Assembly (NCBI GenBank): GCA_009779935.1
Contig: WRAX01000001.1
Span: 37,758-101,757 of the forward strand
DNA length: 64,000 nt
DNA from: Defluviitaleaceae bacterium
GTDB lineage: Bacteria; Bacillota; Clostridia; Lachnospirales; WRAX01
Direction of reading: 5' to 3'
In this document: positions 5,630 through 50,525 of the stretch, one piece after another
How the letters are laid out: each line of letters begins with the position of its first letter
How positions within the stretch are numbered: the stretch's first letter is position 1
Translations under genes and position numbers: made by a program
Notes under the pieces: model-generated
What the model was told of the DNA's origin: nothing
What the model saw: only the letters and a program-made list of their open reading frames with translations
The model's database searches: none

Positions 5630-6991
5630 CTATAATTTAGCAATCGCTGTTTTAATTCTATCCACGCTTTCGTTTTTACCAAATATAACCAACAAATCCG
5701 TTGCACCCCCCGGGGATGCTTCTTTGCCTGACAAGGCACAGCGCAAAGGCCACATTATTTGGGCAGGCTTAATCCCTTCGGTTTCTGCAAATCCTTTTAT
5801 CATGGGGGAAATGGCTTCCGCCGTCCAATCCGTCAGCTCTTCAATTTGTGGTATGATTTTACTTAACATGTCCTTTGCAACTGCTTCATCCACCTTATTT
5901 TTTGGGTTAACAAAAAGCTGATTGTCATAATCAGGCAATTGCGCTACAAAATCCATCATTTCGGGTATTTCGGCAAGCACAGCAATGCGGTCTTTTACAA
6001 GTGTTGCAAGGGCTTTTTTGTCCACATTATCATAGTTAAGATAGGGTAAGGCCAGTGGGTAAAAATCATCCACACACATTGCCTTCAAATATTCGCCATT
6101 CATCCACTTTAATTTTCCTAAATCAAAGGTGGAAGGTGACTTGGAAAGCCCCTCCACACTAAAAATCTGTTCCAGCTCCGATAGGCTGTAAATTTCACGG
6201 TTTTCCGGGGGGCTCCAACCTAACAGCGCAATGTAATTTACAATGGCTTCGGGTAAAAAGCCTTGCTCCAAAAAATCCTCAAAAAAGGCATCTCCCCGCC
6301 GCTTGGACAGCTTACCCCCATCCGCACTTAAAATTAAAGGCAAGTGCACATATGTGGGCACTTCCCAGCCAAAAGCTTGGTACAGCAGGTTATATTTTGG
6401 GGTGCTTGGCAAATATTCACTACCCCGCATCACATGGGTTATTTCCATCAAATGGTCATCCACCACATTTGCGAAGTTGTAGGTAGGAAAGCCGTCAGAC
6501 TTAATCAAAACTTGATTTTCAAGCTCATTATTGTTAACGGTTATTTCACCAAAAACTTCATCAACAAAAGCCGTCTGCCCTTCTTTTGGAATAACCTGCC
6601 GGATAACGTGGGGCTGGCTGGCATCACCTGCCGTATTTTGGCAGGCACAATCCGCAGGGTCATCTTCCTTATCACAAAAACAGCGATAAGCAAAACCCCC
6701 GTCAAGCAACTGCCGGGCATACTTCATATAAACATTTTCCCGTTGGCTTTGGATGTACGGGCCATAATCGCCCCCCACATCAGGCCCCTCATCATGGGTT
6801 ATGCCTGCAATTTTCAGCGTTTCGTAAATCTTTTCTATGGCACCTTCCACCAACCGCTCTTGGTCAGTATCTTCAATGCGCAGGGCAAAAACCCCGCCCA
6901 TCTTCCGTGCCAGCAAATACCCAAATAAAGCTGACCGTAAATTACCAATATGCATAAACCCCGTGGGTGACGGGGCAAAACGTGTTCTCAA
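5630..6991 (-). CDS. gltX: Glutamate--tRNA ligase
   Basis: RFAPSPTGFMHIGN (HIGH) and KLSKR (KMSKS) motifs. The ORF track starts at GTG 7000, but TTG at 6991 has better spacing to AGGAG. Confidence 0.95.
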   Translation of the reverse strand: MRTRFAPSPTGFMHIGNLRSALFGYLLARKMGGVFALRIEDTDQERLVEGAIEKIYETLKIAGITHDEGPDVGGDYGPYIQSQRENVYMKYARQLLDGGFAYRCFCDKEDDPADCACQNTAGDASQPHVIRQVIPKEGQTAFVDEVFGEITVNNNELENQVLIKSDGFPTYNFANVVDDHLMEITHVMRGSEYLPSTPKYNLLYQAFGWEVPTYVHLPLILSADGGKLSKRRGDAFFEDFLEQGFLPEAIVNYIALLGWSPPENREIYSLSELEQIFSVEGLSKSPSTFDLGKLKWMNGEYLKAMCVDDFYPLALPYLNYDNVDKKALATLVKDRIAVLAEIPEMMDFVAQLPDYDNQLFVNPKNKVDEAVAKDMLSKIIPQIEELTDWTAEAISPMIKGFAETEGIKPAQIMWPLRCALSGKEASPGGATDLLVIFGKNESVDRIKTAIAKL

Positions 6992-7068
6992 TCCAATCAC
7001 TCCTAACTTGTAATATAATTGTAACTTAAAACTTGAAAAAAGTAAAGTAAAATTTACAACCCCTTATA

Positions 7069-7098
7069 TTGACGAAGCCTGTGGCTGTGTGGTATAAT
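7069..7098 (+). promoter_or_regulatory. Sigma-A type promoter (TTGACG-18-TGgTATAAT)
   Basis: -35 at 7069-7074. Extended -10 with TATAAT at 7093-7098. It lies upstream of the YheC/D-like gene. Confidence 0.6.
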
Positions 7099-7129
7099 GT
7101 ATGGGCTGATAGATTTAGGGGGTTGGGAA

Positions 7130-8242: not shown

Positions 8243-8980
8243 ATGGCAGGACATTCCAAATTCGCAAACATTAAACATAAAAAGGAAAAGCAAGACAGCA
8301 AGCGTGCCAAGCTGTTTACCAAGTTTGGCAAGGAGATTTCTGTGGCGGTAAAGCTTGGTGGCTCGGATATATCCACAAACAGCCGCTTGAAGGATGTTAT
8401 TACCAAGGCAAGGGCAAATAATATGCCCAATGATAATATTGACCGTGCCATTAAAAAAGCGGCGGGGGATAAGGGCAGTGCTAATTTTGAAGCGGCCACA
8501 TACGAGGGGTTTGGCCCATCAGGGGTTGCTGTTATCGTGGAAACCCTTACAGACAACAAAACACGCACCGTAAGCAATGTGCGTGCATCTTTTAATAAGG
8601 GCGAGGGTAATTTAGGCGTTAGCGGCTCTGTTGCCTTTCAATTTGACCATATTGGGCAAATTACCGTGCTTGCCGCCGATGATATTTGTGAAGAAGATTT
8701 GATGATGCTTACCATAGATGCAGGGGCAACAGACTTTACCGCCGAAGATGAGGGTTATGTGATAACTACCGAGCCCTTAGGGCTTGGGGCGGTGCTGGAA
8801 GCCATGGAAGCGGCAAATATCCCTGTGCTGACAGCAGAAGTGATAATGCAGCCACACATGTACACAAAGCTAACAAACCCGCTGGATATTAAAAATATGA
8901 ACAAAATACTTAATGCCCTTGAAGATGACGATGATGTGCAGGCGGTTTTCCATAACTGGGAAGATGGCGATGGCAACTAA
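8243..8980 (+). CDS. yebC: YebC/PmpR-family transcriptional regulator
   Basis: MAGHSKFANIKHKKEKQD... is the canonical N-terminus. 245 aa. Confidence 0.95.
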   Translation: MAGHSKFANIKHKKEKQDSKRAKLFTKFGKEISVAVKLGGSDISTNSRLKDVITKARANNMPNDNIDRAIKKAAGDKGSANFEAATYEGFGPSGVAVIVETLTDNKTRTVSNVRASFNKGEGNLGVSGSVAFQFDHIGQITVLAADDICEEDLMMLTIDAGATDFTAEDEGYVITTEPLGLGAVLEAMEAANIPVLTAEVIMQPHMYTKLTNPLDIKNMNKILNALEDDDDVQAVFHNWEDGDGN

Positions 8981-10013
8981 GGTTAAAAGCACTGCCAAAA
9001 ACATTATATTGGTTATTTTAGCAGGGGTTTGCCTTGCTTTGGTGGTTAGGCTGTGGTATGGGGAATTGCCCTTGCACGGCCTTATTCCCGTTGTAGGGGG
9101 AGAGGCCACAGGGATTAACCCTTGGGACGAAGCATCTGCCCAATTAATGCTATCATCTGCCCGTTTGGCAATTTATCAACAGGGCGAGACGGACTTTGTG
9201 TACAACAACCTGCAAAGCCATATGGGATGGCAATTAATTACCGATGCCATGCGCAGGCTTATTGAGGAGGGTGACTTTGTATCTGCCGCAGCTGTGCAAA
9301 GTGGCACGGATGGCCTATCCATACAATACAATTTCCCCATGCCCTCCAACTTTTTTAGAGAATCTTTCGGCAGGCGGCCGGGCTTTTTATCTTCCCATTT
9401 TGATGATTTTGAAAGCCTGCGCATAACCCCAACAGGGGGCGGACTGGAATTTGTATTCACAAGCAAATCTGCGGAAGACGGCTTCCTGTTCATCTTAGAG
9501 CAAAGCCCCTTATATAGCGAATTTACCCATTTTTTATCCAGCCACATAAAACAGCAAAGCACGCCCAATATACAATATGTAAGCCCCATCGGCACATTAT
9601 CACTTAGTGCGGTAAACCCTCATATCAGCTTTCTTTTCCCCAATCCTGCCGCCATAAGCCAAGCCAGCATCAATGGCATTTTCACTTACAGCGATAATCG
9701 CCGTGTTGCCCGCTTTTTCCCTAATAATGTGGTGGAATTTAATGCAATCCCAAACCCCGGGCCTTTGGGAGATTTTGCCCAATCCCTTTTGGTGGCTTTT
9801 GACATGATAAGCGGGGATAGCATAGGAAACGGGATCATATTGAGCCATTATGAACACAATGCGGATTCCGGCCGCTGGCATTTTTATTTTGACTACACTT
9901 TGAACCATAAAACCATACCCTTGGAACGTGCGCCCTTAGAAGTGCATGTATTGCGGCGGGATGTGGTTTTTTACCGACGACTTATGCTGGATTTTTTTGA
10001 GGAAGACATATGA
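8964..10013 (+). CDS. Membrane-anchored extracytoplasmic protein (YycH-like, tentative)
   Basis: The likely start is ATG 8964, overlapping the yebC end. It has a single N-terminal TM (IILVILAGVCLALVVRLW) and a large external domain. Confidence 0.35.
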   Translation: MAMATKVKSTAKNIILVILAGVCLALVVRLWYGELPLHGLIPVVGGEATGINPWDEASAQLMLSSARLAIYQQGETDFVYNNLQSHMGWQLITDAMRRLIEEGDFVSAAAVQSGTDGLSIQYNFPMPSNFFRESFGRRPGFLSSHFDDFESLRITPTGGGLEFVFTSKSAEDGFLFILEQSPLYSEFTHFLSSHIKQQSTPNIQYVSPIGTLSLSAVNPHISFLFPNPAAISQASINGIFTYSDNRRVARFFPNNVVEFNAIPNPGPLGDFAQSLLVAFDMISGDSIGNGIILSHYEHNADSGRWHFYFDYTLNHKTIPLERAPLEVHVLRRDVVFYRRLMLDFFEEDI

Positions 10014-10927
10014 ATACAGACCGAATTAAAAACATAATGATAGTGCTTTTGTCTGCTGCAATTGTAGCTTTTTCTGTTTTAATTGTGATGGAGGGGGACA
10101 GGTATACCCTAACCGTTGCAATGGAAGAGAATGTGGCAGCAGTGCTCGATAGGAACAACATGAGCATATCAACAGAAATTGTACGGGATTTTAACCCACG
10201 CCGCCAGCTTAGTTTAGAATTTTATGATTACGATTTGGAAGGGATTGCTGCACGCTTTTTTGGTGATGCCGTACCCCCAAGGGAATTTATGCAAAACACA
10301 ATTGAATATTATTGCGAGCATACAGGCAAAATTATGACCCATAACAACCGAAGCGGCTCCATATTTTTCGGTGTTCCAAACGGCATGTTTGTCGGTGTTT
10401 GCGGGGGTGATTTTTATAAAAATGCCGCATCTGCTGAAGCCCTTGCCCGCACCTTTGTGGAAGAGGTTTTGGGTGCGGATGTAATGCCCTTACATTCCAC
10501 CATACTAACAAGGCAAGGTAATTATGTTATAACATTTTTTGAAGGTTATGGGGATTATTTGATGTTTAACAACCAAATCCGTGTACGCATAACTGACATG
10601 GGTGTTGTTTATGTTTTCTACTCCCGCATGCAAAGCCATGGTTTTGCGGGATATGCCCAACCCATTTTTTCGGCGGATGAAATGCTTATTACCTTGCTTG
10701 CCCACCTGCGGGCAGAAGGTTATGAGAAGCAGGACCATATAAGCGTTATAGACATGCAATTGGTTTATGCTTTTGATGCCCACGCAGGCATATCCCGTGG
10801 TGTGCCCGCATATTTTTTCACCATATCCATCGGTACGGAGGTTTGGATTTATTACCGTGTTTTTAATGCCCATACAGGCCGCCCCATACATGGCGAAACC
10901 ACCTTAATCAGCGGGCCGCATTTATAA
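10010..10927 (+). CDS. Membrane-anchored extracytoplasmic protein (YycI-like, tentative)
   Basis: ATGA start/stop overlap with the upstream gene. The N-terminus (RIKNIMIVLLSAAIVAFSVLIV) resembles YycI-type anchors. Confidence 0.35.
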   Translation: MNTDRIKNIMIVLLSAAIVAFSVLIVMEGDRYTLTVAMEENVAAVLDRNNMSISTEIVRDFNPRRQLSLEFYDYDLEGIAARFFGDAVPPREFMQNTIEYYCEHTGKIMTHNNRSGSIFFGVPNGMFVGVCGGDFYKNAASAEALARTFVEEVLGADVMPLHSTILTRQGNYVITFFEGYGDYLMFNNQIRVRITDMGVVYVFYSRMQSHGFAGYAQPIFSADEMLITLLAHLRAEGYEKQDHISVIDMQLVYAFDAHAGISRGVPAYFFTISIGTEVWIYYRVFNAHTGRPIHGETTLISGPHL

Positions 10928-10932
10928 AAAAA

Positions 10933-10957
10933 TCACCCAAATAAGGGTGATTTTTTT
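10933..10957. terminator. Bidirectional rho-independent terminator
   Basis: tcaccc-aaataa-gggtga stem-loop flanked by an A-run (10925-10932) and a T-run (10951-10957). Confidence 0.75.
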
Positions 10958-10968
10958 AGTTGCGGGCT

Positions 10969-11077
10969 AATACCAATTCCATTCTCAATCATGGAAAAGC
11001 ACATTTTGAAAACGCACTGAAACCTGCGATTTTCAAAATATCCTTTTCCATGTTTCGAATTGGAATTGGTATCAGTA
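10969..11077. repeat. Long imperfect inverted repeat (extended hairpin of about 104 nt)
   Basis: Paired segments: 10970-10980 with 11062-11072 (11 bp perfect), 10991-10999 with 11043-11051, 11003-11012 with 11030-11039, and 11013-11015 with 11026-11028. The loop is 11016-11025. Confidence 0.7.
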
Positions 11078-11078
11078 G

Positions 11079-11243
11079 CTACCTGCCGCCCATCATCATC
11101 ATAAGCATCAACATCATCATATTGTCACCACCAAAGGCATGTGGGTTCATCATCATCATAAGCATGAACATCATCATCATGTCATTGCCGCCCGGATGTG
11201 GGTGTGGCATGTGGTGGTGGGTGCCGCTAATTGGATTGCTCAT
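11079..11243 (-). CDS. 54-aa Met/His-rich peptide (MSNPISGTHHHMPHPHPGGNDMMMMFMLMMMMNPHAFGGDNMMMLMLMMMMGGR)
   Basis: AGGAGG lies 8 nt upstream of the ATG (11243-11241). The stop TAG is at 11081-11079. There is an internal two-fold repeat. It falls below the ORF-track size cutoff. Confidence 0.5.
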   Translation of the reverse strand: MSNPISGTHHHMPHPHPGGNDMMMMFMLMMMMNPHAFGGDNMMMLMLMMMMGGR

Positions 11244-11352
11244 AGGAAATTCCTCCTGATTTGATAATCATTCTAAACTATCCTATGAGATATTTGGCGA
11301 ATATTGCTTGTCACCAAAAAATAGTACGAACTGTGGTGTACAATATGCGCCG

Positions 11353-12264
11353 CTACCTTGGTTTTATGGGCAACAGAAGGTCCAGTTGTTTTTCACCTGC
11401 GGGGATGTTTGGCGAGATAAAGTCCTCGTAATTCATCACCATCTCCTCCAACCATTGCCGGGCAAAGTCATTTTCATATTTTTCGCTTTGTGTGGACCAA
11501 TTGTACAAGGCCTCCCAACGCTCTCCAATTTCATTCATATTGGCGGAAACGCTGGCGAATAAGCCACCTGCAAAGCTTTTTTTAACAAAGGGGGCAGGCA
11601 CCACAAAATCATCGGGAATTGTCGTCCACAACTCGTAACCATATCGGGGGGATGACTGGCAGGGTTCGGGGTTATTAAATCCAAAACTGCGGTGGCCTGC
11701 ACGGGTGTGCAGCTTATGCTCCAATATAAACGGGTCAAAGATGGCAGAGCAGTCCATCTCCGGCGTTTCGCTTATTACATTGTGGGTGGCAAATGTCATG
11801 GCCGGCAATTCAACAATCCTCACATTTTTCAAGTTCTCCATGGTTATTATCCTTTCGGAGAGGTTAATTTTGGGGATGTCTTCATAAACGGTATCCGCCG
11901 CCGCCAAATGTTGCAGCATTTGGGTTAAATTTTGGCTTTGATGTATGCGCCCTATAATACTTTCCACAATATGGCTTAATGTAGCATACACGGCCGTTTT
12001 TTGCCGCAATTTTTCCAGATGGGAAGTTAGTATTTCAAGTGCCGTTTTTGGGTTATTTGCGGCAAAAATACGCTCGATATCCCCAATGGGCATTTTTAGC
12101 TTGCGCAGCAGCACAATATGCTGGATGCGTGCGGTGTTTTCTTCGTCATAATAACGATAGCCATTTTCTGCACGTTTGCTGGCAAGGATGCCGTTTTGCT
12201 CCCAATGGCGCAGGGTGCGGTTAGATATATTGTGCATTTTGGCAACTTCACCTATTCTAATCAT
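11353..12264 (-). CDS. MerR-family transcriptional regulator with a C-terminal GyrI-like/effector-binding domain
   Basis: MIRIGEVAKMHNISNRTLRHWE is the MerR helix-turn-helix. The start at 12264 follows GAGGAGGGG. The C-terminal ~150 aa resemble small-molecule-binding GyrI-like domains. Confidence 0.8.
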   Translation of the reverse strand: MIRIGEVAKMHNISNRTLRHWEQNGILASKRAENGYRYYDEENTARIQHIVLLRKLKMPIGDIERIFAANNPKTALEILTSHLEKLRQKTAVYATLSHIVESIIGRIHQSQNLTQMLQHLAAADTVYEDIPKINLSERIITMENLKNVRIVELPAMTFATHNVISETPEMDCSAIFDPFILEHKLHTRAGHRSFGFNNPEPCQSSPRYGYELWTTIPDDFVVPAPFVKKSFAGGLFASVSANMNEIGERWEALYNWSTQSEKYENDFARQWLEEMVMNYEDFISPNIPAGEKQLDLLLPIKPR

Positions 12265-12384
12265 GGCTTGCCCCTCCTCTCTATACACTATCATAAACCA
12301 TTACGCCGTGTTAAGGTCAATACCTTTTTGGGACGGGGCAAAAATGGCAGAACAAAAGCCAAAGGGCGGGGACAAGCCCCCGCC

Positions 12385-14838
12385 CTACATGTGTTCTTCG
12401 CTTATTTTGGCAAGGCCTACCACGGTAACGCCTTCTTCCAGGTTAATAAGTTTAACCCCTGCTGCCCCCCTGCCTGTGGTGCGTATGTCGCTAACACGTA
12501 TGCGAATAATAACACCATTGGAGTTTATCAGCATCAGTTCTTCATTATCTGTCACACGGGCTATGCCGATTAGATTGCCCGTTTTTTCGTTGGGTTTGTA
12601 GGCAATCAGTCCCTTACCTCTACGCCCTTGCGCTCTAAATTCCTCTTGGTCGGTACATTTTCCAAATCCTTTTTCGGATACAAACAAAAGTTTCATATCC
12701 TCGCAGGCAATTTCTGCCCCGATAACATAGTCATCTTCATCCAGCTTCATGGACAAGCTGCCCATGGACTGCCTGCCGGTGGTGCGCACGGCACTTTCCG
12801 CAAAGCGCAAACCCTTGCCTTTGCTGCTGGATATGAATATATCATCATCCCCCGTGGTTTGGATTGCTGCCACAAGGCTGTCACCGTCTTTAATATTAAT
12901 TGCCAAAAGCCCGTTTTTGTTGGTTTTTTGGAAGGCGGATAAAGGCGTGCGCTTGATAACGGCAGAGCGGGTAACCATGGTTAGGTATCCCTGTGTATAA
13001 TCACTAACCGGCATGGCGGCGGCTATTTTCTCCCCTTCGCTAAGCTTTAATAGGTTAACAATTGCCGTACCCTTAGCGGATCTTCCGGATTCCGGTATTT
13101 GGTAGCCCCGCAATTTGAAGGCCCGCCCCATGGTGGTTATAAACAAAATATCATCATGGGTGGAGGATATGAAGATTTTTTTAATAAAATCCTCATCCCG
13201 GGTGGTAAGGCCTAAAACGCCCTTGCCACCCCTGCTTTGGGTTTTATATGTGTCCAGGGTTGTGCGCTTTACATAATCCAAATGGGTTAGGGTGATAACG
13301 CACATGCCCTCCTCAATCAAATCCTCAATATCAATTTCGCTGTCATCATGCAGGATGGCGGTGCGGCGGCCGTCCCCGAATTTATCACGGATAAGGATGA
13401 TTTCATCTTTAATAACGCCCAAAAGCTTCATCTCATCCGCTAAAATGGATTTTAAGTATTCGATGGTAGCGGTTAACTTGTCAAACTCATCTTGCAACCG
13501 CTCCCGTTCTAATCCGGATAGGGCACGCAGGCGCATTTCCACAATGGCATCTGCCTGCTCTTGGGTAAAACCAAAACGCTCCATAATTTCCGGTTTGGAG
13601 CCGTCGTTTACGCTTCTGTGCTTGCGTATTATGGCAATAATTTCGTCAATAAAATCTAAGGCTTTCAGGAAACCCTCCACAAGATGGATGCGCCTTTGTG
13701 CTTTTGCCAAATCAAAATTGGTGCGGCGTGTTACCACATCTTTTTGATGGTCCAGATAATAGGCTAACATTTGTTTAAGGTTTAGCACCCGTGGCTCGCC
13801 ATTAACAAGGGACAGCATGTTTACGCCAAAGCTTTCTTGCAGCTGGGTGTATTTGTACAGCAAATTAAGCACCACATGGGCATTGGCATCTTTTTTAAGC
13901 TCGATAACCACCCGCACGCCGTTTCGGTCACTTTCATCCCTTATATCGCTTATGCCTTCAATTTTTTTGTCCTTTACCAGCTCTGCCACTTTTTCCTGCA
14001 TTTTGCCTTTGTTTACTTGGTAGGGCATTTGGGTAACGATTATGGCTTCCCTGCCGCCTGCCATCTGTTCTATATCACAGGTTGCACGCATAACAACACG
14101 CCCACGCCCCGTTGTATAGGCAGATTTAATGCCGCTAACCCCAAGGATATTTGCACCCGTAGGAAAGTCAGGGCCCGTTACAATGCGTAAAAGCTCCTCA
14201 ATCTCCGTTTCCCGCCCTTCTTCCACAAAGTTATCAATAATTTTAACAACGGCATTTATAACCTCTGTTAAATTATGGGGCGGTATGTTGGTTGCCATGC
14301 CCACCGCAATACCGGACGAGCCATTAACAAGTAAATTGGGATAGCGTGCAGGCAACACCCGTGGCTCTTTTAACTCCTCGGTGTAGTTGGGTGCAAATTC
14401 CACAGTATCTTTTTCTATATCGGTTATCATTTCCATGGATATGGGCGATAGACGGGCTTCTGTATAACGCTCTGCCGCCGCCTCGTCCCCGTCCATGGAG
14501 CCAAAGTTGCCGTGGCCATCCACCAGCATATAGCGCATAGAAAAATCCTGCGCCATGCGCACCAAAGCATCATAAATTGACGAATTGCCATGGGGATGGT
14601 ATTTACCCATAACATCACCCGTTATACGGGCGCATTTTTTATAGGGTTTGTTAGGCTCCAAATTAAGCTCGTTCATAGAATACAAAATGCGCCTATGCAC
14701 GGGCTTTAAGCCGTCCCGCACATCGGGCAAAGCCCTTGCCACAATAACCGACATGGCATAGTCGATATAAGACTTGCGCATCTCGTCTGCTATATTTGTG
14801 GTTATTATTTTGTCTGTTTTTTGGTTTTCGTCCATCAC
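12385..14838 (-). CDS. gyrA: DNA gyrase subunit A
   Basis: 817 aa with [23 protein letters not shown] and the QRDR region [11 protein letters not shown]. Confidence 0.98.
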
Positions 14839-14849
14839 TTTTACCTTTC

Positions 14850-15077
14850 CTATACGATTTGATATGTCTTGTATATGGCTGGTCTGTACATAGGTTCAGG
14901 AATTTCTTTTCCTATGGATTCCGCCGCATCAATCCATAATTCAATTGCGATCAAAACTTCTCTCGCTGCTTCTTCGGGCGTTTCGCCAAAAGCAGAGCAA
15001 CCTCTCAAATCAGGTACATCAGCAATAAAGCCATCGTCGTCTTTGCTATAAAATATATTGATATGATACTTAAACAT
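14850..15077 (-). CDS. hicB: HicB-family antitoxin (short form)
   Basis: 75 aa. The motif [28 protein letters not shown] is typical of the HicB N-terminal domain. It lies 2 nt downstream of hicA. Confidence 0.8.
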
Positions 15078-15079
15078 AA

Positions 15080-15328
15080 TTAATCCTCCATCTGCAAATT
15101 GTATTGGTCAACATAGCCCAAAAACTCATTAACTTGATAGGGTTTCGCTTCACCCTTCACATTTTGGATACTCAACAATTCAACAACATATGGATGTTTA
15201 TAGATTCTGTGACTGCCATTCGTCCTGTGCAACTTAAAACCAAAGGATTCTATCAGTCGCACAAAATCATTAAAACTCACATTTTTAGAGCCATTCATAA
15301 CAACCAGCAATAATTTCTTTTTGTTCAT
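15080..15328 (-). CDS. hicA: HicA-family mRNA interferase toxin
   Basis: 82 aa with FVRLIESFGFKLHRTNGSHRIYKH (HicA/YcfA signature). Confidence 0.8.
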   Translation of the reverse strand: MNKKKLLLVVMNGSKNVSFNDFVRLIESFGFKLHRTNGSHRIYKHPYVVELLSIQNVKGEAKPYQVNEFLGYVDQYNLQMED

Positions 15329-15657: not shown

Positions 15658-17601
<1,944 letters not shown>

Positions 17602-26111: not shown

Positions 26112-26605
26112 TTAGGATATATACTTTCGCATATTCTTTAACGCATTTTTCTCCAAACGGCTTACTTGTGCTTGGCTTATGCCTATTTCATCCGCCACCT
26201 CCATTTGGGTTTTGCCTTCAAAAAAGCGTAGGTTGATAATATGCCTTTCCCGCTCGCCCAGCCTTTTCATGGCTTCTGAAAGGGAGATGTTTTCCAGCCA
26301 CATGGCATCGGTATTTTTGTCATCACTTAGCTGGTCCATAACAAAAAGTGCATCTGTGCCGTCGTTATAAACGGGTTCGAAAAGTGATACGGGCTCCTGT
26401 ATGGCATCAAGGGCAAAAACCACTTCTTGCCGGGAAACGCCCAACTCCACAGCAATTTCTTCGATGGTGGGTTCTTTGCTGTTTTGGTTTATCAGCCGCT
26501 CCTTAGCTTGCAGGGCTTTGTAGGCAATGTCCCTTAAACTTCGGCTTACCCTGATGGAATTATTGTCCCTTAAATATCGCCTAATTTCACCTATTATCAT
26601 TGGTA
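26112..26605 (-). CDS. sigG: sigG 3' segment (regions 2.4-4 of sporulation sigma factor G), separated from its 5' segment
   Basis: PMIIGEIRRYLRDNNSIRVSRSLRDIAYKAL...GISQAQVSRLEK is near-identical to my recollection of B. subtilis SigG from residue ~100. The MAFI- start in the ORF track is element-derived. Confidence 0.85.
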
Positions 26606-26629
26606 TGAATGCCATTAGACGAAAAACTA

Positions 26630-28000
26630 TTATAGCCCTTCAAACTTATAAAACACTTCAACATTCTCATCATCAATCACAATTTTTTCCACACACGAGC
26701 GCACGATGTTGCGTTGCTCATGCTTTGTCATATACTCCCAAGTTTCTTCAAGGGTTTCCAATGTTTTTTTCACACTTTCAATTTTATCGGCAATCACATT
26801 GCGTTCCTGCTCCCTTGTAATTTGGGCTCCCATATTGGCAAGTTGCTTTTGCTGCTCTTTTATGGTGTTTATCAAAATTTCGTCACCATTGTCTGCATAA
26901 AGGTTGTACAGACGTTTAATTTTTTTGGCAACCTCATCATATCTACCCTGCAACACTTCCAGCACCGATTGGGTTGCAGCCCGCACATTGTCCACCTGCT
27001 TTTGTTTTATGGAAAAAGAGAATAAATCACTAATTATAACGCTTTCCACATCACTGGCCCACAGCCTTTTGTTGTTGCAATGGGGGTCTTTTACCAAATG
27101 GGGCTTGCTTGTATCTTGGGAATAGCATACGATTTTACAATCATGCTTGCCCCATTTTTGATAGCGCATTTTAGCCCCGCATTTACCACAAAGCATTAGC
27201 CCGGTAAACAGATAGTTGCTGTGGGTTGCACGGTTAATGGACCGCTCCGCCATATAATCCATGGCTTTTTGATAAACATCTAAGCTGATAAGCGGTTCGT
27301 GCTTGCCCAAAAACTCTTCATCATTATAAATTATGTAACCGGCGTTGGATTTGCGCTCCAAAATCTGTATGGCAAGCTTTTCGTATTTAAGCCCCAGGGT
27401 TTGGGCAATCTTGCCGGTGGAATAACCTTCCAAATACAGGTCATAAATTTTGCGCACTGTTTCCGCATCTTTATTTGGCACAAGTATGCCCTGCCCCTTA
27501 TCATAATCATAACCAAAGGGTATGCGGCCGCCGCCGGGCCAAAGCCCTGCTTTTACACGCTCTCTCATACCCATACGGGTGCGCTCTCTTATATTTTCCC
27601 GCTCCAATTGGGCAAATGCGGATAAAATGCCCAGCATAAGCCGCCCAAGGGGGGTAGATGTGTCCATACTTTCCTGCGTGGAAATGAAGTCCACGCCATG
27701 GGGGTTAAACACATCTTCAATCAAATACAATGTGTCCTTTTGGCTGCGGGAAAGCCTGTCCAATTTATAAACCAGCACCGTGCTGATGGTTTTATTTTTC
27801 ACATCAGCAATCATCCTTTGCAATTCCGGCCTATCCATATTGCTGCCGCTGTATCCGCCGTCAATATAATAATCAAAATCTTTAATACCCTTGGAAGCGC
27901 AGTGTCCTGCAAGCATCTGCTTTTGCGCTTCTATGGAGTAACCTTCCTCCCGCTGGGCATCTGTGGAAACCCTGATATAAATCGCTGCTTTGTGCTGCAT
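26630..28000 (-). CDS. Large serine recombinase (SpoIVCA/CcrB-like)
   Basis: 456 aa with AAIYIRVSTDAQ (catalytic Ser), a resolvase domain, a recombinase domain, a Cys-rich zinc ribbon (CGKCGAKM...C) and a coiled-coil. Confidence 0.92.
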   Translation of the reverse strand: MQHKAAIYIRVSTDAQREEGYSIEAQKQMLAGHCASKGIKDFDYYIDGGYSGSNMDRPELQRMIADVKNKTISTVLVYKLDRLSRSQKDTLYLIEDVFNPHGVDFISTQESMDTSTPLGRLMLGILSAFAQLERENIRERTRMGMRERVKAGLWPGGGRIPFGYDYDKGQGILVPNKDAETVRKIYDLYLEGYSTGKIAQTLGLKYEKLAIQILERKSNAGYIIYNDEEFLGKHEPLISLDVYQKAMDYMAERSINRATHSNYLFTGLMLCGKCGAKMRYQKWGKHDCKIVCYSQDTSKPHLVKDPHCNNKRLWASDVESVIISDLFSFSIKQKQVDNVRAATQSVLEVLQGRYDEVAKKIKRLYNLYADNGDEILINTIKEQQKQLANMGAQITREQERNVIADKIESVKKTLETLEETWEYMTKHEQRNIVRSCVEKIVIDDENVEVFYKFEGL

Positions 28001-28011
28001 AAAGCACCCCC

Positions 28012-28203
28012 TTAGCCATTAGCTTCATCATAACACAAAGTGGTGATGTTTTCAACGGCATTTTTTACCAATGTATCTTGGGGAGAAAGTCGCACATTAA
28101 CTGCTTGAATGGCTTCCAAAACCACATTGCTGTCCAGTATATATTTTTCCAAATCAGCCTTATTCACCTTTTTTCCATTAATGTATCTGGTTACACTTAG
28201 CAT
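28012..28203 (-). CDS. 63-aa hypothetical protein upstream of the recombinase
   Basis: The start at 28203 follows AAGGAG. Its stop lies 11 nt before the recombinase ATG. The longer ORF-track version lacks an RBS. Confidence 0.45.
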   Translation of the reverse strand: MLSVTRYINGKKVNKADLEKYILDSNVVLEAIQAVNVRLSPQDTLVKNAVENITTLCYDEANG

Positions 28204-28300
28204 GGCAACGCTCCTTTTTTGCATTGTTGCCATCAAATGCGGTGCGTAATCCCGGGTTACAAAAAACACCGTGTACATGCGCCACGGTGCCAAGGATATA

Positions 28301-28371
28301 CAGGGGTAGAGAGAATCGAACTCCCACTAAAGGTTTTGGAGACCTCTGTCATGCCACTTGACCATACCCCT
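28301..28371 (-). tRNA. tRNA-Trp (anticodon CCA)
   Basis: The reverse complement AGGGGTATGGTCAAGTGGCATGACAGAGGTCTCCAAAACCTTTAGTGGGAGTTCGATTCTCTCTACCCCTG folds as a cloverleaf. It has a 7-bp acceptor stem, the anticodon loop CUCCAAA and the T-loop TTCGATT. No CCA end is encoded. Confidence 0.9.
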
Positions 28372-28414
28372 AAATAAGATGCAGGGCGCACAATGTGCGC
28401 CGCTACAACCAATA

Positions 28415-28488
28415 TGCTGGTACCGAGATTCGAACTCGGGAGCCTCTCCCTTACCAAGGGAGCGCTCTACCTACTGAGCTATACCAGC
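28415..28488 (-). tRNA. tRNA-Thr (anticodon GGT)
   Basis: The reverse complement GCTGGTATAGCTCAGTAGGTAGAGCGCTCCCTTGGTAAGGGAGAGGCTCCCGAGTTCGAATCTCGGTACCAGCA folds as a canonical cloverleaf with the anticodon loop TTGGTAA. Confidence 0.92.
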
Positions 28489-28554
28489 AAATATTTCAAC
28501 AAAAGATATTCTACCACGCCAAAGGGCATTTGTCAACAAAAATTTTTGGGAAAT

Positions 28555-29112
28555 TTATATTTGGGGACAGGAAGGGTTTGACAGCTTTTTTATCAGGTCA
28601 TCATGGGTGGTTAAGTTGATTTGGGTGCCTTTGGCTGCGGTTAGGTTGCAGTGTTTTAACCAATCACGCCATTTTTGTATACCAAACATGGTGGATATGG
28701 TTTGCCACGATGGTGTGCCTTGTGTCCTTACGGCATTGTGTTGCCGTGCTGATGGGGGGCGGTTTTTTATGTAGTCGTCTATAAATTGCGCTTGCCAGTG
28801 CTCCTTGGTTTGATGGGAGTAAGGGCGGGAAGGGGATGGTTGGTTTTGGGGGTAGTGTTTTTCCAAAAAGTCTTTTAAGTTTATTCCAAAGCGCAGTTTT
28901 ATGACGGTGTGGGGCGGCAAGGTTTTTTTCTTAAATTCTGCTGTGCGCGGCGGGCGGCCATTGTCTATGATAAACTGATTTATGGTATCGAAGATGGTTT
29001 GCTCGCTCCAGCCCATAAAGGGCATGTGGTCAAGGATTTCTTGTATTTTTTCTTTTGTGCCTTGGTCTGTCACCACATCCAATGCTGCCTGTAAGGCTTG
29101 TTTTCGTGTCAT
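28555..29112 (-). CDS. Hypothetical protein with two homing-endonuclease-associated-repeat-like (HEARO-like) modules
   Basis: 185 aa. It has two repeats of the pattern W..Q.I...I..F....GR.P...EF......P....I...FG....W/FL. AGGAGG lies 7 nt upstream, directly after the premature stop of the sigG 5' fragment. Confidence 0.5.
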   Translation of the reverse strand: MTRKQALQAALDVVTDQGTKEKIQEILDHMPFMGWSEQTIFDTINQFIIDNGRPPRTAEFKKKTLPPHTVIKLRFGINLKDFLEKHYPQNQPSPSRPYSHQTKEHWQAQFIDDYIKNRPPSARQHNAVRTQGTPSWQTISTMFGIQKWRDWLKHCNLTAAKGTQINLTTHDDLIKKLSNPSCPQI

Positions 29113-29149
29113 TTAGCATCCTCCTATTATCAATTTCGCTTAATGACAT

Positions 29150-29450
29150 TCATTGGTACAGCATATGTGGAAAATTTTACGCCATGGCTGGTGTCAAAAT
29201 TGTCTATAGCTTTAATAAGGCCAATGCAGCCCACTTGGAATATATCATCAATATTTTCGCCACGGTTGTTGAAGCGTTGGATAACGCTAAGTACAAGGCG
29301 CAGGTTGCCGTATATATATTCCCTGCGGGCATGTTTACAGCCCTGCAAAATCTTTGCAAAAAGTATATCTTTTTCCGCTTGTTTTAGAATAGGAAGTTTG
29401 GCAGTGTTTACGCCGCAAATTTCCACCTTGGTGCGCTGTGTGCCGCTCAT
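29150..29450 (-). CDS. sigG: sigG 5' segment (regions 1.2-2.3). As it stands, the ORF runs 6 codons into the element and stops at 29130.
   Basis: MSGTQRTKVEICGVNTAKLPILK...GNLRLVLSVIQRFNNRGENIDDIFQVGCIGLIKAIDNFDTSHGVKFSTYAVPM matches the SigG N-terminal ~100 aa. Confidence 0.85.
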
Positions 29451-47773: not shown

Positions 47774-50254
47774 TTATTGCAACTTAACCCGCCGCAAACG
47801 CAAGGCATTTAACAGCACAGAAATGGACGAAAATGTCATGGCAATAGCAGCTATCATGGGGTCCAGCAGCGGGCCGCCCGCCAAAAACCACAAGCCCATT
47901 GCAATTGGAATGCAAAGCACATTGTAAAAGAATGCCCAAAACAGGTTTTGCTTGATATTGGTGATGGTTTTGCGGCTTAGTGTAATAGCAGAAACCACGC
48001 TGGACAAATCACCCCGCATAAGCACAATATCAGCGGATTCGATTGCAACATCCGTGCCTTGCCCAATGGCAATGCCCACATCGGCTTGGGCAAGGGCGGG
48101 GGCGTCATTAATACCGTCGCCTACCATGGCAACCTTTTTGCCGTCTGTTTGCAGCTTTTTGATGGTATCCGCTTTATCGGCAGGTAGCACCTCTGCCAGC
48201 ACTTGTGTTATGCCTGCTTGTTTCGCCACCGCTTCGGCGGTTTTTTTGTTGTCGCCTGTTAGCATAATAACTTCTATGCCCATGGCCTGCATCTTTTCCA
48301 CAGCGGCCTTGCTGTCGGCTTTAATAACATCTGCCACAGCAATAATTGCCGCCATTTTCCCGTCAACAGCCATATACATGGGGGTTTTGCCTTCTTCTGC
48401 CAAGGTTTGGGCGTGGTCCACTGCCCACCCAGTGATATTATTTTCGGACATTAGCCGTTGGTTGCCTATAAGTAGGGCTTTGCCATCAATTTCGGCCTTA
48501 ATGCCTTGGCCTGTTATGGCGGTAAAGCCGGTTGGTTCAGTTAGGACAAGCTCCCGCTTCAAAGCTTCGGCAACAATGGCTTCACCCAAAGGATGTTCGG
48601 ACTTTTTTTCGGCAGATGCGGCAAGGCGCAGTATTTCTGCGATATTATAAGCCTCGTCTGCCACGATATCGGTAACATGGGGCTTGCCCACAGTAATCGT
48701 GCCTGTTTTATCCAAAACCACCGTCTGGATTTTATAGGCAGTTTCCAAAGATTCTCCGGATTTGATAAGTACACCGTTTTCGGCCCCCTTGCCCGTACCC
48801 ACCATAATGGATGTAGGTGTGGCAAGCCCCAAGGCGCATGGGCAAGCAACAATCAAAATAGCTATAAAAATGCGCATGGCAAACCAAATTGTGCTGGGCT
48901 CACCTGCTGCATTGGTTGCAATAAAATCCCCGCCAAAAATTGCCCAACCCGCAAGGCTTAAAATGGCTATAATGATAATGGCAGGCACAAACTTTTCGCT
49001 TATGGCATCCGCAAGGGCGGCAATTGGGGCTTTGCTGCCCTGCGCCTGCTCCACCAATTTAATTATTTGGGACAGGGCAGTGTCACGCCCAACCTTGGTG
49101 GCACGATATTTTATGGATCCGTTTTTGTTGATACTTGCGCCAATTACAGCATCACCAACAGCCTTGCCAACAGGCATGGATTCCCCTGTAAGCATGGATT
49201 CGTCCACACTGGTTTCGCCTTCGGTTACAATGCCATCCACGGGCATTTTCTCCCCCGGGCGCACGATGATGATATCGCCCACGGCAACCTCATCAATATA
49301 AACCTCCACTTCCTCGCCATTGCGGATGATTTTGGCGGTTTTTGGGGCAAGCCCCATTAGCTTTTTAATGGCTTCACCGGTTTTGCCTTTGGCAATACTT
49401 TCCATATACTTGCCCATAACGATAAGGGTTAAAATCACACCTACAATCTCAAAAAACGGCTCGTAATTGGCGGCAAAGAAGATATTGGCAAAGGTTAGGT
49501 ACAAGCTGTAAACAAACGCCGCCGCTGTACCCTTAGCGATTAGCGAATCCATATTGGGGCTGCGCTTAACAAATAGGGCATTAAATCCACGTGTATAAAT
49601 TTTCCAATTTACAATTACCACGGGCAGGGTTAGTGCCAGTTGGATTATGGTGTTTTGCCAAGCAAATTCATGTAAAATCCAATGGTGTAACTGCGGCCGC
49701 CCAAAAAGGTGCAGGGCATGGGGTCCCATGGCAATCAAAAACAAGGGTAGGGTAAAAATTGCAGATATTATCAGCCTTTTGCGCAGGGCAAGGGTTTCTT
49801 GTTGTTTACGGGCGGCTTCCACATCCACACTTTCTTCTTCCAAAAGCTCAAAGCCGGCCTTTTTTGCAGCTTTTATCACATCCACCACCGAAACCTCGGT
49901 CATATTATAGGTAAGATGCAGTTTTTCGGCGGCAAAGTTTACGCTTGCTTCCGTAACACCATTAAGCCGCTTAACTGTGCGCTCCAATGCGCCCGAGCAG
50001 GCTGCGCATGTCATACCCCCCACCTTAAAAATACGGGTGCCTGATGGTATTTCCAAGCCAAAGCCGGCTTTTTTTGCAGCGGCTATCACTTCATCCAAGC
50101 TTATAACATCCTTATCAAAAGTTAGGGACAGTTTTTCCGTGGCAAAGTTTACGCTGGCTTGCAAAACCCCTTCTTTGCGGCCCAGGGTGCGTTCCAATGC
50201 GCCAGAGCAGGCTGCGCATGTCATACCTGATATATTTAGTAACATGGTTTCCAT
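47774..50254 (-). CDS. copA: Copper-translocating P-type ATPase with two N-terminal HMA domains
   Basis: Two copies of [13 protein letters not shown], the CPC motif ([11 protein letters not shown]), DKTGT and GDGINDAP. Confidence 0.97.
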
Positions 50255-50255
50255 T

Positions 50256-50525
50256 TTACATCATCCTTCCCACGGTTTTTATTAAATCTTCTGTCGCTTG
50301 CCCATCACCTTTTTCAAGGCGGGGGGTTATGCAGGTTTTTATGTGGCTTGCCACCAAAAGCTGCGCCACCGAGCCGATAGACTTTTGTACAGACAAAATT
50401 TGGGCAATTACATCATCACAATTTGCGCCTTCTTCTACCATGCGCTTAATACCCCTCACCTGACCTTCTATTCGGTTAAGGTGGGTGGTTGTTTTTTTGA
50501 TAATTTCAGGGGGTCGGTTATTCAT
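50256..50525 (-). CDS. csoR: CsoR-family copper-sensing repressor
   Basis: 89 aa with [26 protein letters not shown]...H..C, the CsoR W-X-Y-Z ligand pattern. Confidence 0.9.

Follow-up and report, generated by a model that had tools for sequence, protein, structure and literature searches.

Met- and His-rich tracts bind Cu(I) and Ag(I) in CopC, PcoC, CusF and SilE, and in the Mets-motif binders as described (CopC/PcoC, CusF, SilE, the Ctr1 ectodomain and the Met-rich insert of CueO) spaced MxM, MxxM or HxM motifs lie in soluble exported domains whose genes belong to metal operons. Exceptional Met content combined with hydrophobicity is known from maize δ-zeins and the Brazil-nut 2S albumin, and Met-lined surfaces that are adaptable or redox-sensitive occur in the SRP54 M domain, the Met patches of calmodulin and the Met-rich low-complexity domain of yeast Pbp1. 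Very small hydrophobic proteins encoded by monocistronic genes include the Bacillus mother-cell proteins SpoVM, CmpA and the YjcZ-type 'tiny TM' proteins, of which SpoVM has one amphipathic helix and the YjcZ-type one transmembrane helix with Gly-rich flanks, and also the Firmicutes type I toxins (Fst, TxpA, BsrG), which have one full-length transmembrane helix, a charged tail, structured UTRs and an antisense RNA that overlaps the gene; many of them occur in several copies or on mobile elements.

We compared these systems with a 54-aa ORF from a Defluviitaleaceae MAG, located in a stretch of 64,000 nucleotides that is called the window below. The ORF has a high Met content in common with the Mets-motif binders (and, in the window member, several His residues), and both Met content and hydrophobicity with the plant proteins. 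A very small size, hydrophobic helices and a monocistronic gene are found both here and in SpoVM, CmpA and the YjcZ-type proteins, the Gly-rich flanks of the last also being a common feature, and small size, hydrophobicity, monocistronic organization and structured UTRs are shared with the type I toxins. Our best overall reading, to which we assign a probability of roughly 0.5, is a hydrophobic hairpin mini-protein that is probably expressed in sporulation and whose function we infer.

Coding status and relatives of the small ORF

The features of the locus, in window coordinates, are as follows.

8913–10927, plus strand: overlapping pair of N-terminally anchored proteins of 366 aa and 305 aa; convergent, conserved neighbours
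10926–10957, both directions: bidirectional intrinsic terminator (A7, G+C-rich core stem of 6 bp, A-U extension to 13 bp, T7)
10968–11074, minus strand: long near-perfect hairpin of ~105 nt in the 3΄ UTR, from RNA folding
11079–11243, minus strand: CDS of a 54-aa Met/Leu-rich mini-protein, from the ORF listing; frame open in 14/14 members
11252–11257, minus strand: Shine-Dalgarno sequence AGGAGG, 8 nt 5΄ of the ATG at 11243–11241
11279–11287, minus strand: box CATAGGATA, matching the –10 element of mother-cell (σE/σK) promoters, CATAnnnT/TA
11300–11312, minus strand: block GACAAGCAATATT, from the upstream alignment; its GACAAGC part is identical to the core of the ideal SpoIIID site
11317–11327, minus strand: third block GTACTATTTT, conserved in the window and two relatives (L107 and L041), weaker in others
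11353–12294, minus strand: MerR_1 plus Cass2/GyrI-like regulator, upstream of the small ORF

An earlier note on this DNA, made from the sequence alone, had reported the ORF at 11079–11243 with its 54-aa sequence, the AGGAGG-N8-ATG start, an internal two-fold repeat (GGNDMMMMFMLMMMM / GGDNMMMLMLMMMM) and an N-terminal HHHMPHPHP tract; all of these were verified in the ORF listing and in the sequence. Its count of 23 Met was too high: the peptide contains 19 Met among 54 residues (35%), compared with 28% family-wide, which places it among the most Met-rich natural proteins known to us, and it has one basic residue in all, an Arg at the C-terminus. A scan of the six frames of the 64-kb window for at least 6 Met per 20 residues identified this locus and the N-terminus of the adjoining 366-aa ORF only.

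A phmmer search against 1.84 billion representatives gave 5 matches (best E = 9e-11); 8 further members were found by scanning metagenomes with a hand-made DNA pattern, TTYGGNGGNGAYNNNATGATGATG, and a profile search added another 8. The family comprises 21 distinct sequences of 49–57 aa each, and the relatives (~20) are all metagenomic, several being from samples that also yielded termite-gut Clostridia MAGs. A word-indexed homology search with the single 54-aa peptide gave no match, the exact sequence being absent from the clustered collection searched, and a metagenome search with the family alignment returned 600 pattern stretches, none of which was confirmed by tblastn, probably as a result of low-complexity filtering. 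No significant match to the window peptide was found in Pfam, NCBIfam (including the YjcZ-type), PHROGs or PDB sequences, and 14 members scanned singly against curated families gave noise only (best E = 0.016, FxsA, 4 members). Within this collection, no NCBI protein records were found for the family members checked, and the sole name attached to them was the JGI label 'hypothetical protein'. The family illustrates how low-complexity micro-ORFs evade both annotation and word-indexed homology searches.

Conservation of the reading frame in relatives had been set beforehand as the test by which the ORF could be refuted. In the codon-level analysis, the sense frame was the only one open in 14/14 members, indels among relatives were whole codons, and the proportion of synonymous differences exceeded that of nonsynonymous differences (pS ~0.76 versus pN ~0.31; median dN/dS 0.22). 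In the invariant Gly, Gly and Asp columns, the codons GGT, GGC, GGA and GGG and both GAC and GAT were all in use, and Leu columns were encoded by 5–6 different codons. Selection acts at the level of the amino-acid sequence, including the Gly, Asp, Pro and Phe columns. A GGAGG-like ribosome-binding site at a similar distance from the ATG was present in 15/15 loci with upstream sequence on the contig (17 loci in total), taking the form of GAGG or GAGGGAGG in L024, L025 and L060. The mirror ORF on the plus strand (10960–11259) is an artefact, as the earlier note had held, because relatives do not maintain open antisense frames.

These data bear on the alternative that the ORF is a Met-codon-rich leader or sensor peptide, or an artefact of a non-coding ATG repeat. 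The 19 ATG codons in 54 and the structured RNA downstream would suit such an explanation. However, the amino-acid-level selection, the whole-codon indels and the open sense frame argue against a repeat, and a leader is contradicted by the arrangement downstream, where no co-directional gene follows the terminator; in at least 8 contexts (the window and at least 7 others) it is followed by the 3΄ end of the convergent gene, so that there is nothing to attenuate. Both versions, which the earlier note had raised, are therefore extremely improbable. We conclude that the ORF is almost certainly a genuine coding gene that founds an undescribed family, a verified addition to the small proteins of uncultured gut Clostridia, which are still poorly charted.

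Transcription unit and genomic neighbourhood

The gene has a conserved promoter region, a strong ribosome-binding site and a terminator of its own and makes up a discrete monocistronic transcription unit, in line with the small unit suggested by the earlier note; the regulator upstream and the hairpin and terminator downstream were located where listed above. The terminator is shared with the convergent 305-aa gene, whose stop codon is at 10925–10927. Most members with downstream sequence on the contig have a terminator immediately 3΄ of the small ORF's stop codon. The whole 3΄ region of the window folds at –78.7 kcal/mol (z = –13; 0/200 shuffles equal). The long hairpin is a lineage-specific insertion that is unique in the window and absent from the closest relative, L107; L038 has an unrelated hairpin at the corresponding place. 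An Rfam scan of 9.5–13 kb gave sub-threshold miRNA-like matches to the hairpin only, and no known RNA family, which indicates a generic hairpin. It is possibly an mRNA stabilizer.

We also considered a type I toxin-like peptide that damages membranes and is restrained by RNA structure or antisense RNA. The small hydrophobic product, the monocistronic unit and the long 3΄ UTRs, structured or repeat-rich in several members, are compatible with this idea, which we nevertheless regard as improbable: the apolar segments extend over just 11–13 residues, compared with ~18 or more in the single transmembrane helix of such toxins, are split by NPHAFGGD and lack a charged tail, the ribosome-binding site is strong and unobstructed, and the bidirectional terminator blocks convergent transcription and hence leaves no space for an overlapping antisense RNA. 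The full-length transmembrane helix, charged tail, antisense RNA and multi-copy or mobile occurrence of Fst, TxpA and BsrG were not found here. The gene occurs in one copy, and its synteny persists across relatives that are ~50% diverged, which fits vertical inheritance.

The 366/305-aa pair adjoins the small ORF not only in the window but also in L020, L023, L024, L063, L107, L145–147 and L148. Searches of Pfam, NCBIfam and PDB sequences identified no family for either protein; the best Foldseek match of the 305-aa protein was to the C-terminal PepSY domains of YpeB (5boi, E = 9e-7), and this protein is predicted to have tandem PepSY-like domains. Vertical inheritance, with no functional link, may account for the synteny that is conserved near gyrB/gyrA and dnaA.

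The MerR-family gene adjoins the small ORF in the lineage of the window only. No MerR gene was present at 15 other loci of the family (in L107, gyrB is directly upstream), and among 16 MerR homologue loci, the 10 that represent full-length relatives had no Met-rich ORF downstream and had not kept the synteny. A link to the MerR/GyrI-like regulator accordingly found no support.

Upstream region

A conserved motif of ~70 nt upstream of the gene accompanies it into unrelated genomic contexts, with the pattern GACAAGC-AATATT-N12-CATAGGATA. A CATA-type box at a constant distance from the ATG was found in 11/13 aligned upstream regions. The box reads CATAGGATA in the window, L107, L023 and L041, with the variants CATAGGATG in L020, L063 and L148, CATAAAATA in L021, CATAGTATA in L038, CATATAATC in L149, CATACTATG in L078, CATACAATG in L025 and CATATAGTT in L024. 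Several distant members (L024, L080 and L145) lack the conserved blocks. The third block, GTACTATTTT, may be an UP-like element or the binding site of a factor.

In Clostridium difficile, mother-cell promoters have a common CATA-type –10 element, with a –35 element of ATA for σE and AC for σK (PMC3789822). Mapped σK promoters carry CATAGTATA and similar boxes, and GC replaces AC in those of CD0896 and CD1063.2 (PMC3789822, Table S7). The high-affinity, or ideal, site of SpoIIID is TAGGACAAGC (cited in PMC11180830). In the window, the –10 element CATAnnnT(A), the criterion for the mother-cell regulon, was found by sequence, together with a GC located 18 nt 5΄ of CATA, at the position where σK promoters have AC; CD0896, with GC-N18-CATAGTATA, has the same geometry (PMC3789822, Table S7). 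A SpoIIID-type box was also identified by sequence match to the ideal site, as GACAAGC in the window and L107 and as GACA[T/G]GC in the others; the window carries GGTGACAAGC, and three relatives have two tandem 10-nt GACAnGCAAT units. The combined promoter pattern has a single occurrence in the window, where 0.26 would be expected by chance, and the motif precedes none of the other genes in the 64 kb, so that no regulon emerged.

Other assignments were tried and rejected. An ATA lies only 14 nt 5΄ of CATA, compared with 16–17 nt in mapped C. difficile σE promoters, and is thus 2 bp too near for a σE promoter. The –35 element and the spacing do not fit the forespore σF/G pattern, the σH pattern does not fit the region, and a σA promoter with TTGACA would have the wrong spacing to every –10 element. 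An RNA switch formed by base-pairing between the CATAGGA box and the start-codon region is not family-wide: the pairing is strong in the window and L107 only (–13.5 kcal/mol), modest in L021 and at shuffle level in the rest.

Two further observations concern the host. The adjoining YheCD-like gene has a canonical TTGACG-N17-TATAAT promoter, which suggests that the unusual motif is not simply the σA style of this organism. A full-length SigG is encoded in the window, split by an inserted element, and reaches 465.8 bits after in silico joining, against an equivalog cut-off of 372; sporulation genes therefore exist there.

On the strength of the CATAnnnTA –10 element, the C at the σK –35 position with matching spacing and the SpoIIID-like GACAAGC, we tentatively propose that the mini-protein gene is expressed specifically in sporulation, in the mother cell, a proposal that we hold at somewhat less than even odds. 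The putative promoter resembles σE/σK promoters, a further point in common with the small mother-cell sporulation proteins. Given mother-cell expression, the product would be a small protein associated with the spore envelope. Should the sporulation assignment of the promoter be true, the family would represent a novel small protein associated with spores, from beyond the model systems Bacillus and C. difficile.

The same hairpin mini-protein might instead be expressed vegetatively or under stress, from a σA promoter of the form TCGCCA-N19-TAGAAT, which has an over-long spacer of 19–20 bp and would be switched on by a MerR-type or other factor bound at CATAGGATAG, a conserved box in the spacer. 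Spacers of 19–20 bp are typical of MerR-activated promoters, and a MerR-family gene is directly upstream in the window; moreover, in most members the box is succeeded by a TAnAAT-like hexamer, with TCGNCA-like hexamers 19–20 bp upstream. However, inspection of the spacer revealed no dyad symmetry, and MerR activation agrees poorly with the 15/15 other family loci without MerR and with the 10 MerR homologue loci without the ORF. As regards σA itself, L078 lacks TAnAAT, and L023, L038 and L041 have degenerate forms of it, whereas the CATA box is kept in all four. We therefore consider vegetative expression the less likely of these possibilities.

The predicted helical hairpin and its Met residues

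The mini-protein consists of a disordered tail (residues 1–19), helix 1 (~20–32), an NPHAFGGD turn and helix 2 (~40–52). AlphaFold2 placed the helices at 20–32 and 40–52, with a mean pLDDT of 62, that is, with modest confidence, on the basis of 14 low-complexity sequences. The tail is unstructured, polar and Pro-rich, with a semi-conserved H-x-P-F motif. Both helices are hydrophobic, 11–13 residues long and N-capped by Asp or Asn, and they are joined by an almost invariant turn, (S/N)PGGFGGD. In the 21-sequence profile, G39 is invariant, D40 is present in 20/21 and F37 in 19/21; Met occupies most helix-end columns in 17–20 of the 21 sequences, and the helix cores of the relatives prefer Leu, or else Ile or Phe. 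Only the window and L107 have the His tract, these two having gained 4–6 His in tail and turn; elsewhere, one semi-conserved His is found.

From this model, the 54-aa protein is likely to be a hydrophobic helical hairpin. Two short helices with a fixed turn distinguish it from SpoVM, with its single amphipathic helix, and from the YjcZ-type, with its single transmembrane helix; nothing equivalent to the Met caps exists in SpoVM, CmpA or the YjcZ-type, and NCBIfam and Pfam scans gave no match to any of these even at E = 10. A conventional membrane span would need longer helices and a less polar turn. The hairpin would either sink into a single membrane leaflet or another hydrophobic layer, or self-assemble, with Leu in the core and the Met thioethers forming a ring around it.

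The earlier note had proposed a cytosolic Cu(I)/Ag(I) buffer, in which the Met thioethers, and in the lineage of the window also the His residues, would bind soft metals. The helix-end Met is near-invariant even though Leu is one mutation away, as a soft-metal site would also show, and the 4–6 His gained in the window and L107 would suit such a role. However, the Met residues form contiguous runs (MMMMFMLMMMM) in apolar helices with Leu/Ile/Phe cores, in contrast to the MxM/MxxM motifs with polar spacers of the Mets-motif binders; the His residues are lineage-specific and not conserved; and the peptide has no export signal and matches none of the metal-binding families. No copper, silver or Msr genes were present near the small ORF at 16 other family loci, and a search for Msr motifs across the window found none. 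The copper locus of the window (CsoR and an HMA P-type (P1B) ATPase) is 36 kb from the small ORF and has no such peptide. The MerR next to the ORF carries an effector domain of the Cass2/GyrI-like type, and its matches to metal-sensor models are restricted to the N-terminal region (the HTH with part of the helix that follows on from it), at scores far under the cut-offs. A metal buffer is therefore improbable, and our analysis corrects a copper-peptide annotation that is tempting yet unsupported.

A reserve of methionine or sulfur, comparable to the Met-rich seed storage proteins, would be built up, for instance in spores, and degraded at a later stage. Spore proteins that serve as amino-acid stores are an established concept (SASPs). 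The extreme Met content (35% here and 28% in the family) and the possible sporulation-type promoter are compatible with such a reserve. However, a store needs no invariant PGGFGGD turn, no fixed helix lengths and no position-specific choice of Met versus Leu; there is no protease or Met-salvage neighbour; and a 54-aa peptide would be a poor bulk store unless massively expressed. The δ-zeins and the 2S albumin, moreover, are eukaryotic, much larger, routed through the secretory pathway and devoid of a helix-turn-helix mini-architecture. In contrast to these storage proteins, the position-specific conservation in the family points to a structural role, and we regard a reserve as quite improbable.

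Returning to the hairpin, its Met caps hint at a chemistry-specific role, as plain hydrophobicity would not need Met. The strict retention of Met at the helix ends leaves room for a role specific to thioethers, which may include metal binding. The caps might form a surface that is sensitive to oxidants or scavenges them, or a soft and adaptable binding surface; an antioxidant or redox role is doubtful as a specific assignment. By analogy with SRP54, calmodulin and Pbp1, which are not homologous and differ wholly in size and context, selection for Met over generic hydrophobic residues suggests a need for flexible or oxidizable side chains.

One speculative extension, which we consider rather unlikely, concerns the strictly anaerobic, spore-forming Clostridia of the termite gut, which would deposit this new class of mini-protein, a thioether-capped hairpin, in the envelope of the spore or the membrane of the forespore. 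The Met rings at the two hairpin ends would then act as a sacrificial or reversible sink for oxidants or soft metals, and sulfoxide formation would switch membrane association or assembly. If true, this would be a redox-responsive small protein made almost wholly of methionine. The position-specific conservation of Met in the family indicates a use of methionine chemistry that is not explained by the known Met-rich classes compared here.

A conserved gene for a two-helix Met/Leu mini-protein

The position of the small ORF, 11079-11243 on the minus strand, and the translation quoted in the earlier note both match exactly. Its Shine-Dalgarno sequence, AGGAGG, is located at 11257-11252, 8 nt 5' of the ATG, and the peptide contains the described two-fold repeat with near-identical halves (GGNDMMMMFMLMMMM / GGDNMMMLMLMMMM). 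The number of Met residues, previously given as 23 of 54, is 19 of 54 (35%). A single-sequence word search with the peptide gave no match, the exact sequence being absent from that collection; the product is already gene-called on three public contigs. An exhaustive phmmer search of 1.84 billion representative proteins yielded five small relatives (E 9e-11 to 8e-4) and none beyond this narrow set. Eight further relatives were obtained from metagenomes with a degenerate DNA pattern for FGGDxMMM, and eight more with a profile search, giving 21 distinct sequences of 49-57 aa after upstream over-extensions of gene calls were trimmed. JGI sample Ga0123355 is the source of several family contigs and also yielded MAG Emb289P1bin98; the Lab288, Co191, Th196 and Emb289 series are presumably termite-gut MAGs. 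NCBI lists the neighbouring 305-aa protein as hypothetical, from 'MAG: Defluviitaleaceae bacterium'.

In the codon-level analysis, the sense frame was the sole open frame in 14 of 14 members; loss of frame in relatives, which the earlier note named as evidence against the ORF, was thus not observed. The plus-strand mirror ORF (10960-11259) arises from the ATG repeats, as had been proposed, and many relatives have stops in the antisense frames. At the invariant Gly, Gly and Asp positions, three or four different Gly codons and both Asp codons occur, and Leu positions draw on five or six. Change at synonymous sites has reached saturation (pS ~0.76 versus pN ~0.31; median dN/dS 0.22). A GGAGG-like ribosome-binding site precedes the gene in all 15 loci (of 17) with upstream sequence on the contig, and a terminator directly follows the stop codon in most members. 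Judged from these sequence comparisons, the family is really protein-coding, because frame conservation, codon usage, the relation of pS to pN and the flanking signals all agree. The gene is monocistronic, and the suggestion of a leader peptide is not borne out, since no gene open to attenuation lies downstream. No curated relatives were found in Pfam, NCBIfam, PHROGs or PDB sequences; the family is an orphan of unprecedented composition, of interest to small-protein and sporulation specialists, and small hydrophobic bacterial mini-proteins are already known as a kind.

In the 21-sequence alignment, the N-terminal tail is polar and rich in Pro, often begins with MNNPxxG and contains an H-x-P-F motif that is semi-conserved; it is followed by an Asp or Asn cap and helix 1 (x-M-M-[L/M/F]-[L/F]-L-L-[M/L]-M-M-M). 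The turn, (S/N)PGGFGGD(N), in which G39 is invariant, D40 occurs in 20/21 and F37 in 19/21 sequences, leads to helix 2 (M-M-M-[L/M]-L-L-[L/M]-M-M-M-(M)) and a short, Gly-rich C-terminal end. An AlphaFold2 model based on 14 sequences (mean pLDDT 62) places helices at 20-32 and 40-52, with residues 1-19 disordered. At most helix-end columns, 17-20 of the 21 sequences have Met, and helix centres favour Leu; selection at the helix ends is for Met specifically. The window copy is the most Met-rich variant. Charged residues are scarce. Judged from the sequence, a standard membrane span would need longer apolar segments and a less polar turn. The mini-protein probably forms a hydrophobic hairpin that would either self-assemble or enter a membrane or hydrophobic layer to a shallow depth. 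Its Met caps could provide an oxidant-sensitive or scavenging surface, or an adaptable one; passages of one report offer a precedent for Met residues as antioxidants in Bacillus exoproteins (PMC5526929).

Promoter and 3' region

A motif of ~70 nt, tGTACTATTTT..TGACAnGCAATATT-N12-TTCATAGGATAGTTTAnAAT, accompanies the gene and occurs once in the window. By sequence match, its CATAGGATA box fits a mother-cell -10 element, with the variants CATAGGATG, CATAGTATA, CATAAAATA, CATATAATC, CATACTATG, CATACAATG and CATATAGTT among members. The sigmaE and sigmaK promoters of C. difficile have a CATA-type -10 box in common and are told apart by the -35 element (ATA versus AC); mapped sigmaK promoters there include CATAGTATA boxes, two have GC for AC, and that of CD0896 is GC-N18-CATAGTATA (PMC3789822). 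The small ORF promoter has the geometry of CD0896, and its ATA is 2 bp too close for sigmaE. The block GACAAGC is identical to the core of the high-affinity site for SpoIIID, TAGGACAAGC, and three relatives have two tandem 10-nt SpoIIID-like units. A sigmaA-type promoter with a 19-20-bp spacer is a possible reading of the same motif. A canonical extended sigmaA promoter (7060-7100, plus strand; TTGACG-N17 ending TG-n, then TATAAT) precedes the YheC/D-like ATP-grasp gene, which heads a co-directional run of YheCD-like, YebC, 366-aa and 305-aa genes, so that the small ORF motif does not merely reflect how sigmaA promoters look locally. Taken together, the -10 box, the SpoIIID-like block, this departure from the local sigmaA style and the presence of sporulation sigma factors in the organism (SigG) favour putative mother-cell, SpoIIID-modulated expression; during sporulation, the mother cell would probably produce the mini-protein.

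The sequence UCCUAUGAG, which spans the start codon, is the exact complement of the promoter box CUCAUAGGA (11241-11289, minus strand; -13.5 kcal/mol, with 1 of 300 shuffles as good). Only the window and L107, its closest relative, show this pairing, apart from a weak form in L021; it could silence translation of read-through transcripts starting upstream of the box. At locus L145 (~6930-7000), the conserved promoter blocks are absent, and four tandem TATAGCTTA copies stand right before the ribosome-binding site instead.

The long hairpin and terminator reported 3' of the gene are both present:

10968-11074, near-perfect hairpin of ~105 nt downstream of the small ORF
10926-10957, bidirectional terminator common to the small ORF and the convergent 305-aa gene

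The predicted fold of this 3' region has -78.7 kcal/mol (z = -13), and Rfam gave sub-threshold generic hairpin matches only. Several relatives also carry repeats or hairpins between stop codon and terminator (small ORF orientation): four TAGAAAC-like units in L023 (6235-6300), TAGATGT twice in L021 (2289-2340), AATTATC five times in L063 (1126-1200), AATGA-rich repeats in L046 (163-230) and, in L038 (9909-10020), a long hairpin whose sequence bears no relation to that of the window hairpin. Repeats or palindromes seem to arise preferentially in the 3' UTR.

Genomic context and the copper-buffer reading

The MerR-family regulator upstream of the small ORF is present as described (11353-12294, minus strand; MerR_1 plus Cass2/GyrI-like), but the adjacency is not conserved: the Met-rich ORF is absent from 10 of 10 full-length MerR homologue loci, no MerR gene was found at the other family loci, and in L107 gyrB lies directly upstream. 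Neither MerR nor metal genes show a conserved link with the family. The earlier interpretation of the peptide as a Cu(I)/Ag(I) buffer lacks contextual and motif support, and we consider it improbable; what still speaks for it are the conserved cap Met residues and the His gained in the lineage of the window (6 His) and L107 (4 His), to which the His tract is limited (most others have 0-2). The actual copper-export locus of the window lies elsewhere (47774-50525, minus strand), with a CsoR-family repressor (89 aa, Trns_repr_metal) directly upstream of a P1B-type ATPase (826 aa, two HMA domains) and no Met-rich peptide attached.

The recurrent neighbour is an overlapping gene pair encoding N-terminally anchored 366-aa and 305-aa proteins, present in the window and in L020, L023, L024, L063, L107, L145-147 and L148, convergent with the small ORF and, in L024, divergent. 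No sequence family was found for either protein. The 305-aa model, of modest confidence (pLDDT 60), has its best match in YpeB, with the tandem PepSY domains (5boi, E = 9e-7), with further matches to FTP/PepSY propeptides and, weakly, YycH. Because the region is near dnaA, dnaN, gyrB and gyrA, the conserved synteny may be inherited instead of functional. Other family members have unrelated contexts.

A HicA toxin/HicB antitoxin pair (14850-15328, minus strand) is inserted between gyrB (15658-17592) and gyrA (12385-14838), and a HicAB pair also adjoins the small ORF in L023. In the sub-family with small ORFs ending ...CGLEA, the small ORF and a G+C-rich hairpin are followed by a gene for a 195-aa Gln/Met/Ser-rich protein (MQPDNSTSNNIPDMLSMMMQML...; L078, 2501-3088, plus strand) with no Pfam match; L080 contains the start of the same gene.

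A split sigG gene

The sigG gene (26112-29450, minus strand) is split by an insert of ~2.55 kb, with an 8-bp direct repeat, ACCAATGA, at both junctions:

29450-29133, minus strand, sigG N-part, ending ...KFSTYAVPM
28555-29112, 185-aa ORF in the insert
28012-28293, 93-aa ORF in the insert
26630-28000, minus strand, large serine recombinase in the insert
26603-26112, minus strand, sigG C-part, starting PMIIGEIRRY / PMIIGEIRRYLRDNN

No published description of an intervening element in sigG was found; in the portions of the literature covered, known elements of this type split mother-cell genes such as sigK, gerE and spsM, and it would be unusual for one to interrupt a forespore sigma gene. Joined in silico, the two parts form a full-length SigG equivalog (465.8 bits versus a cut-off of 372).
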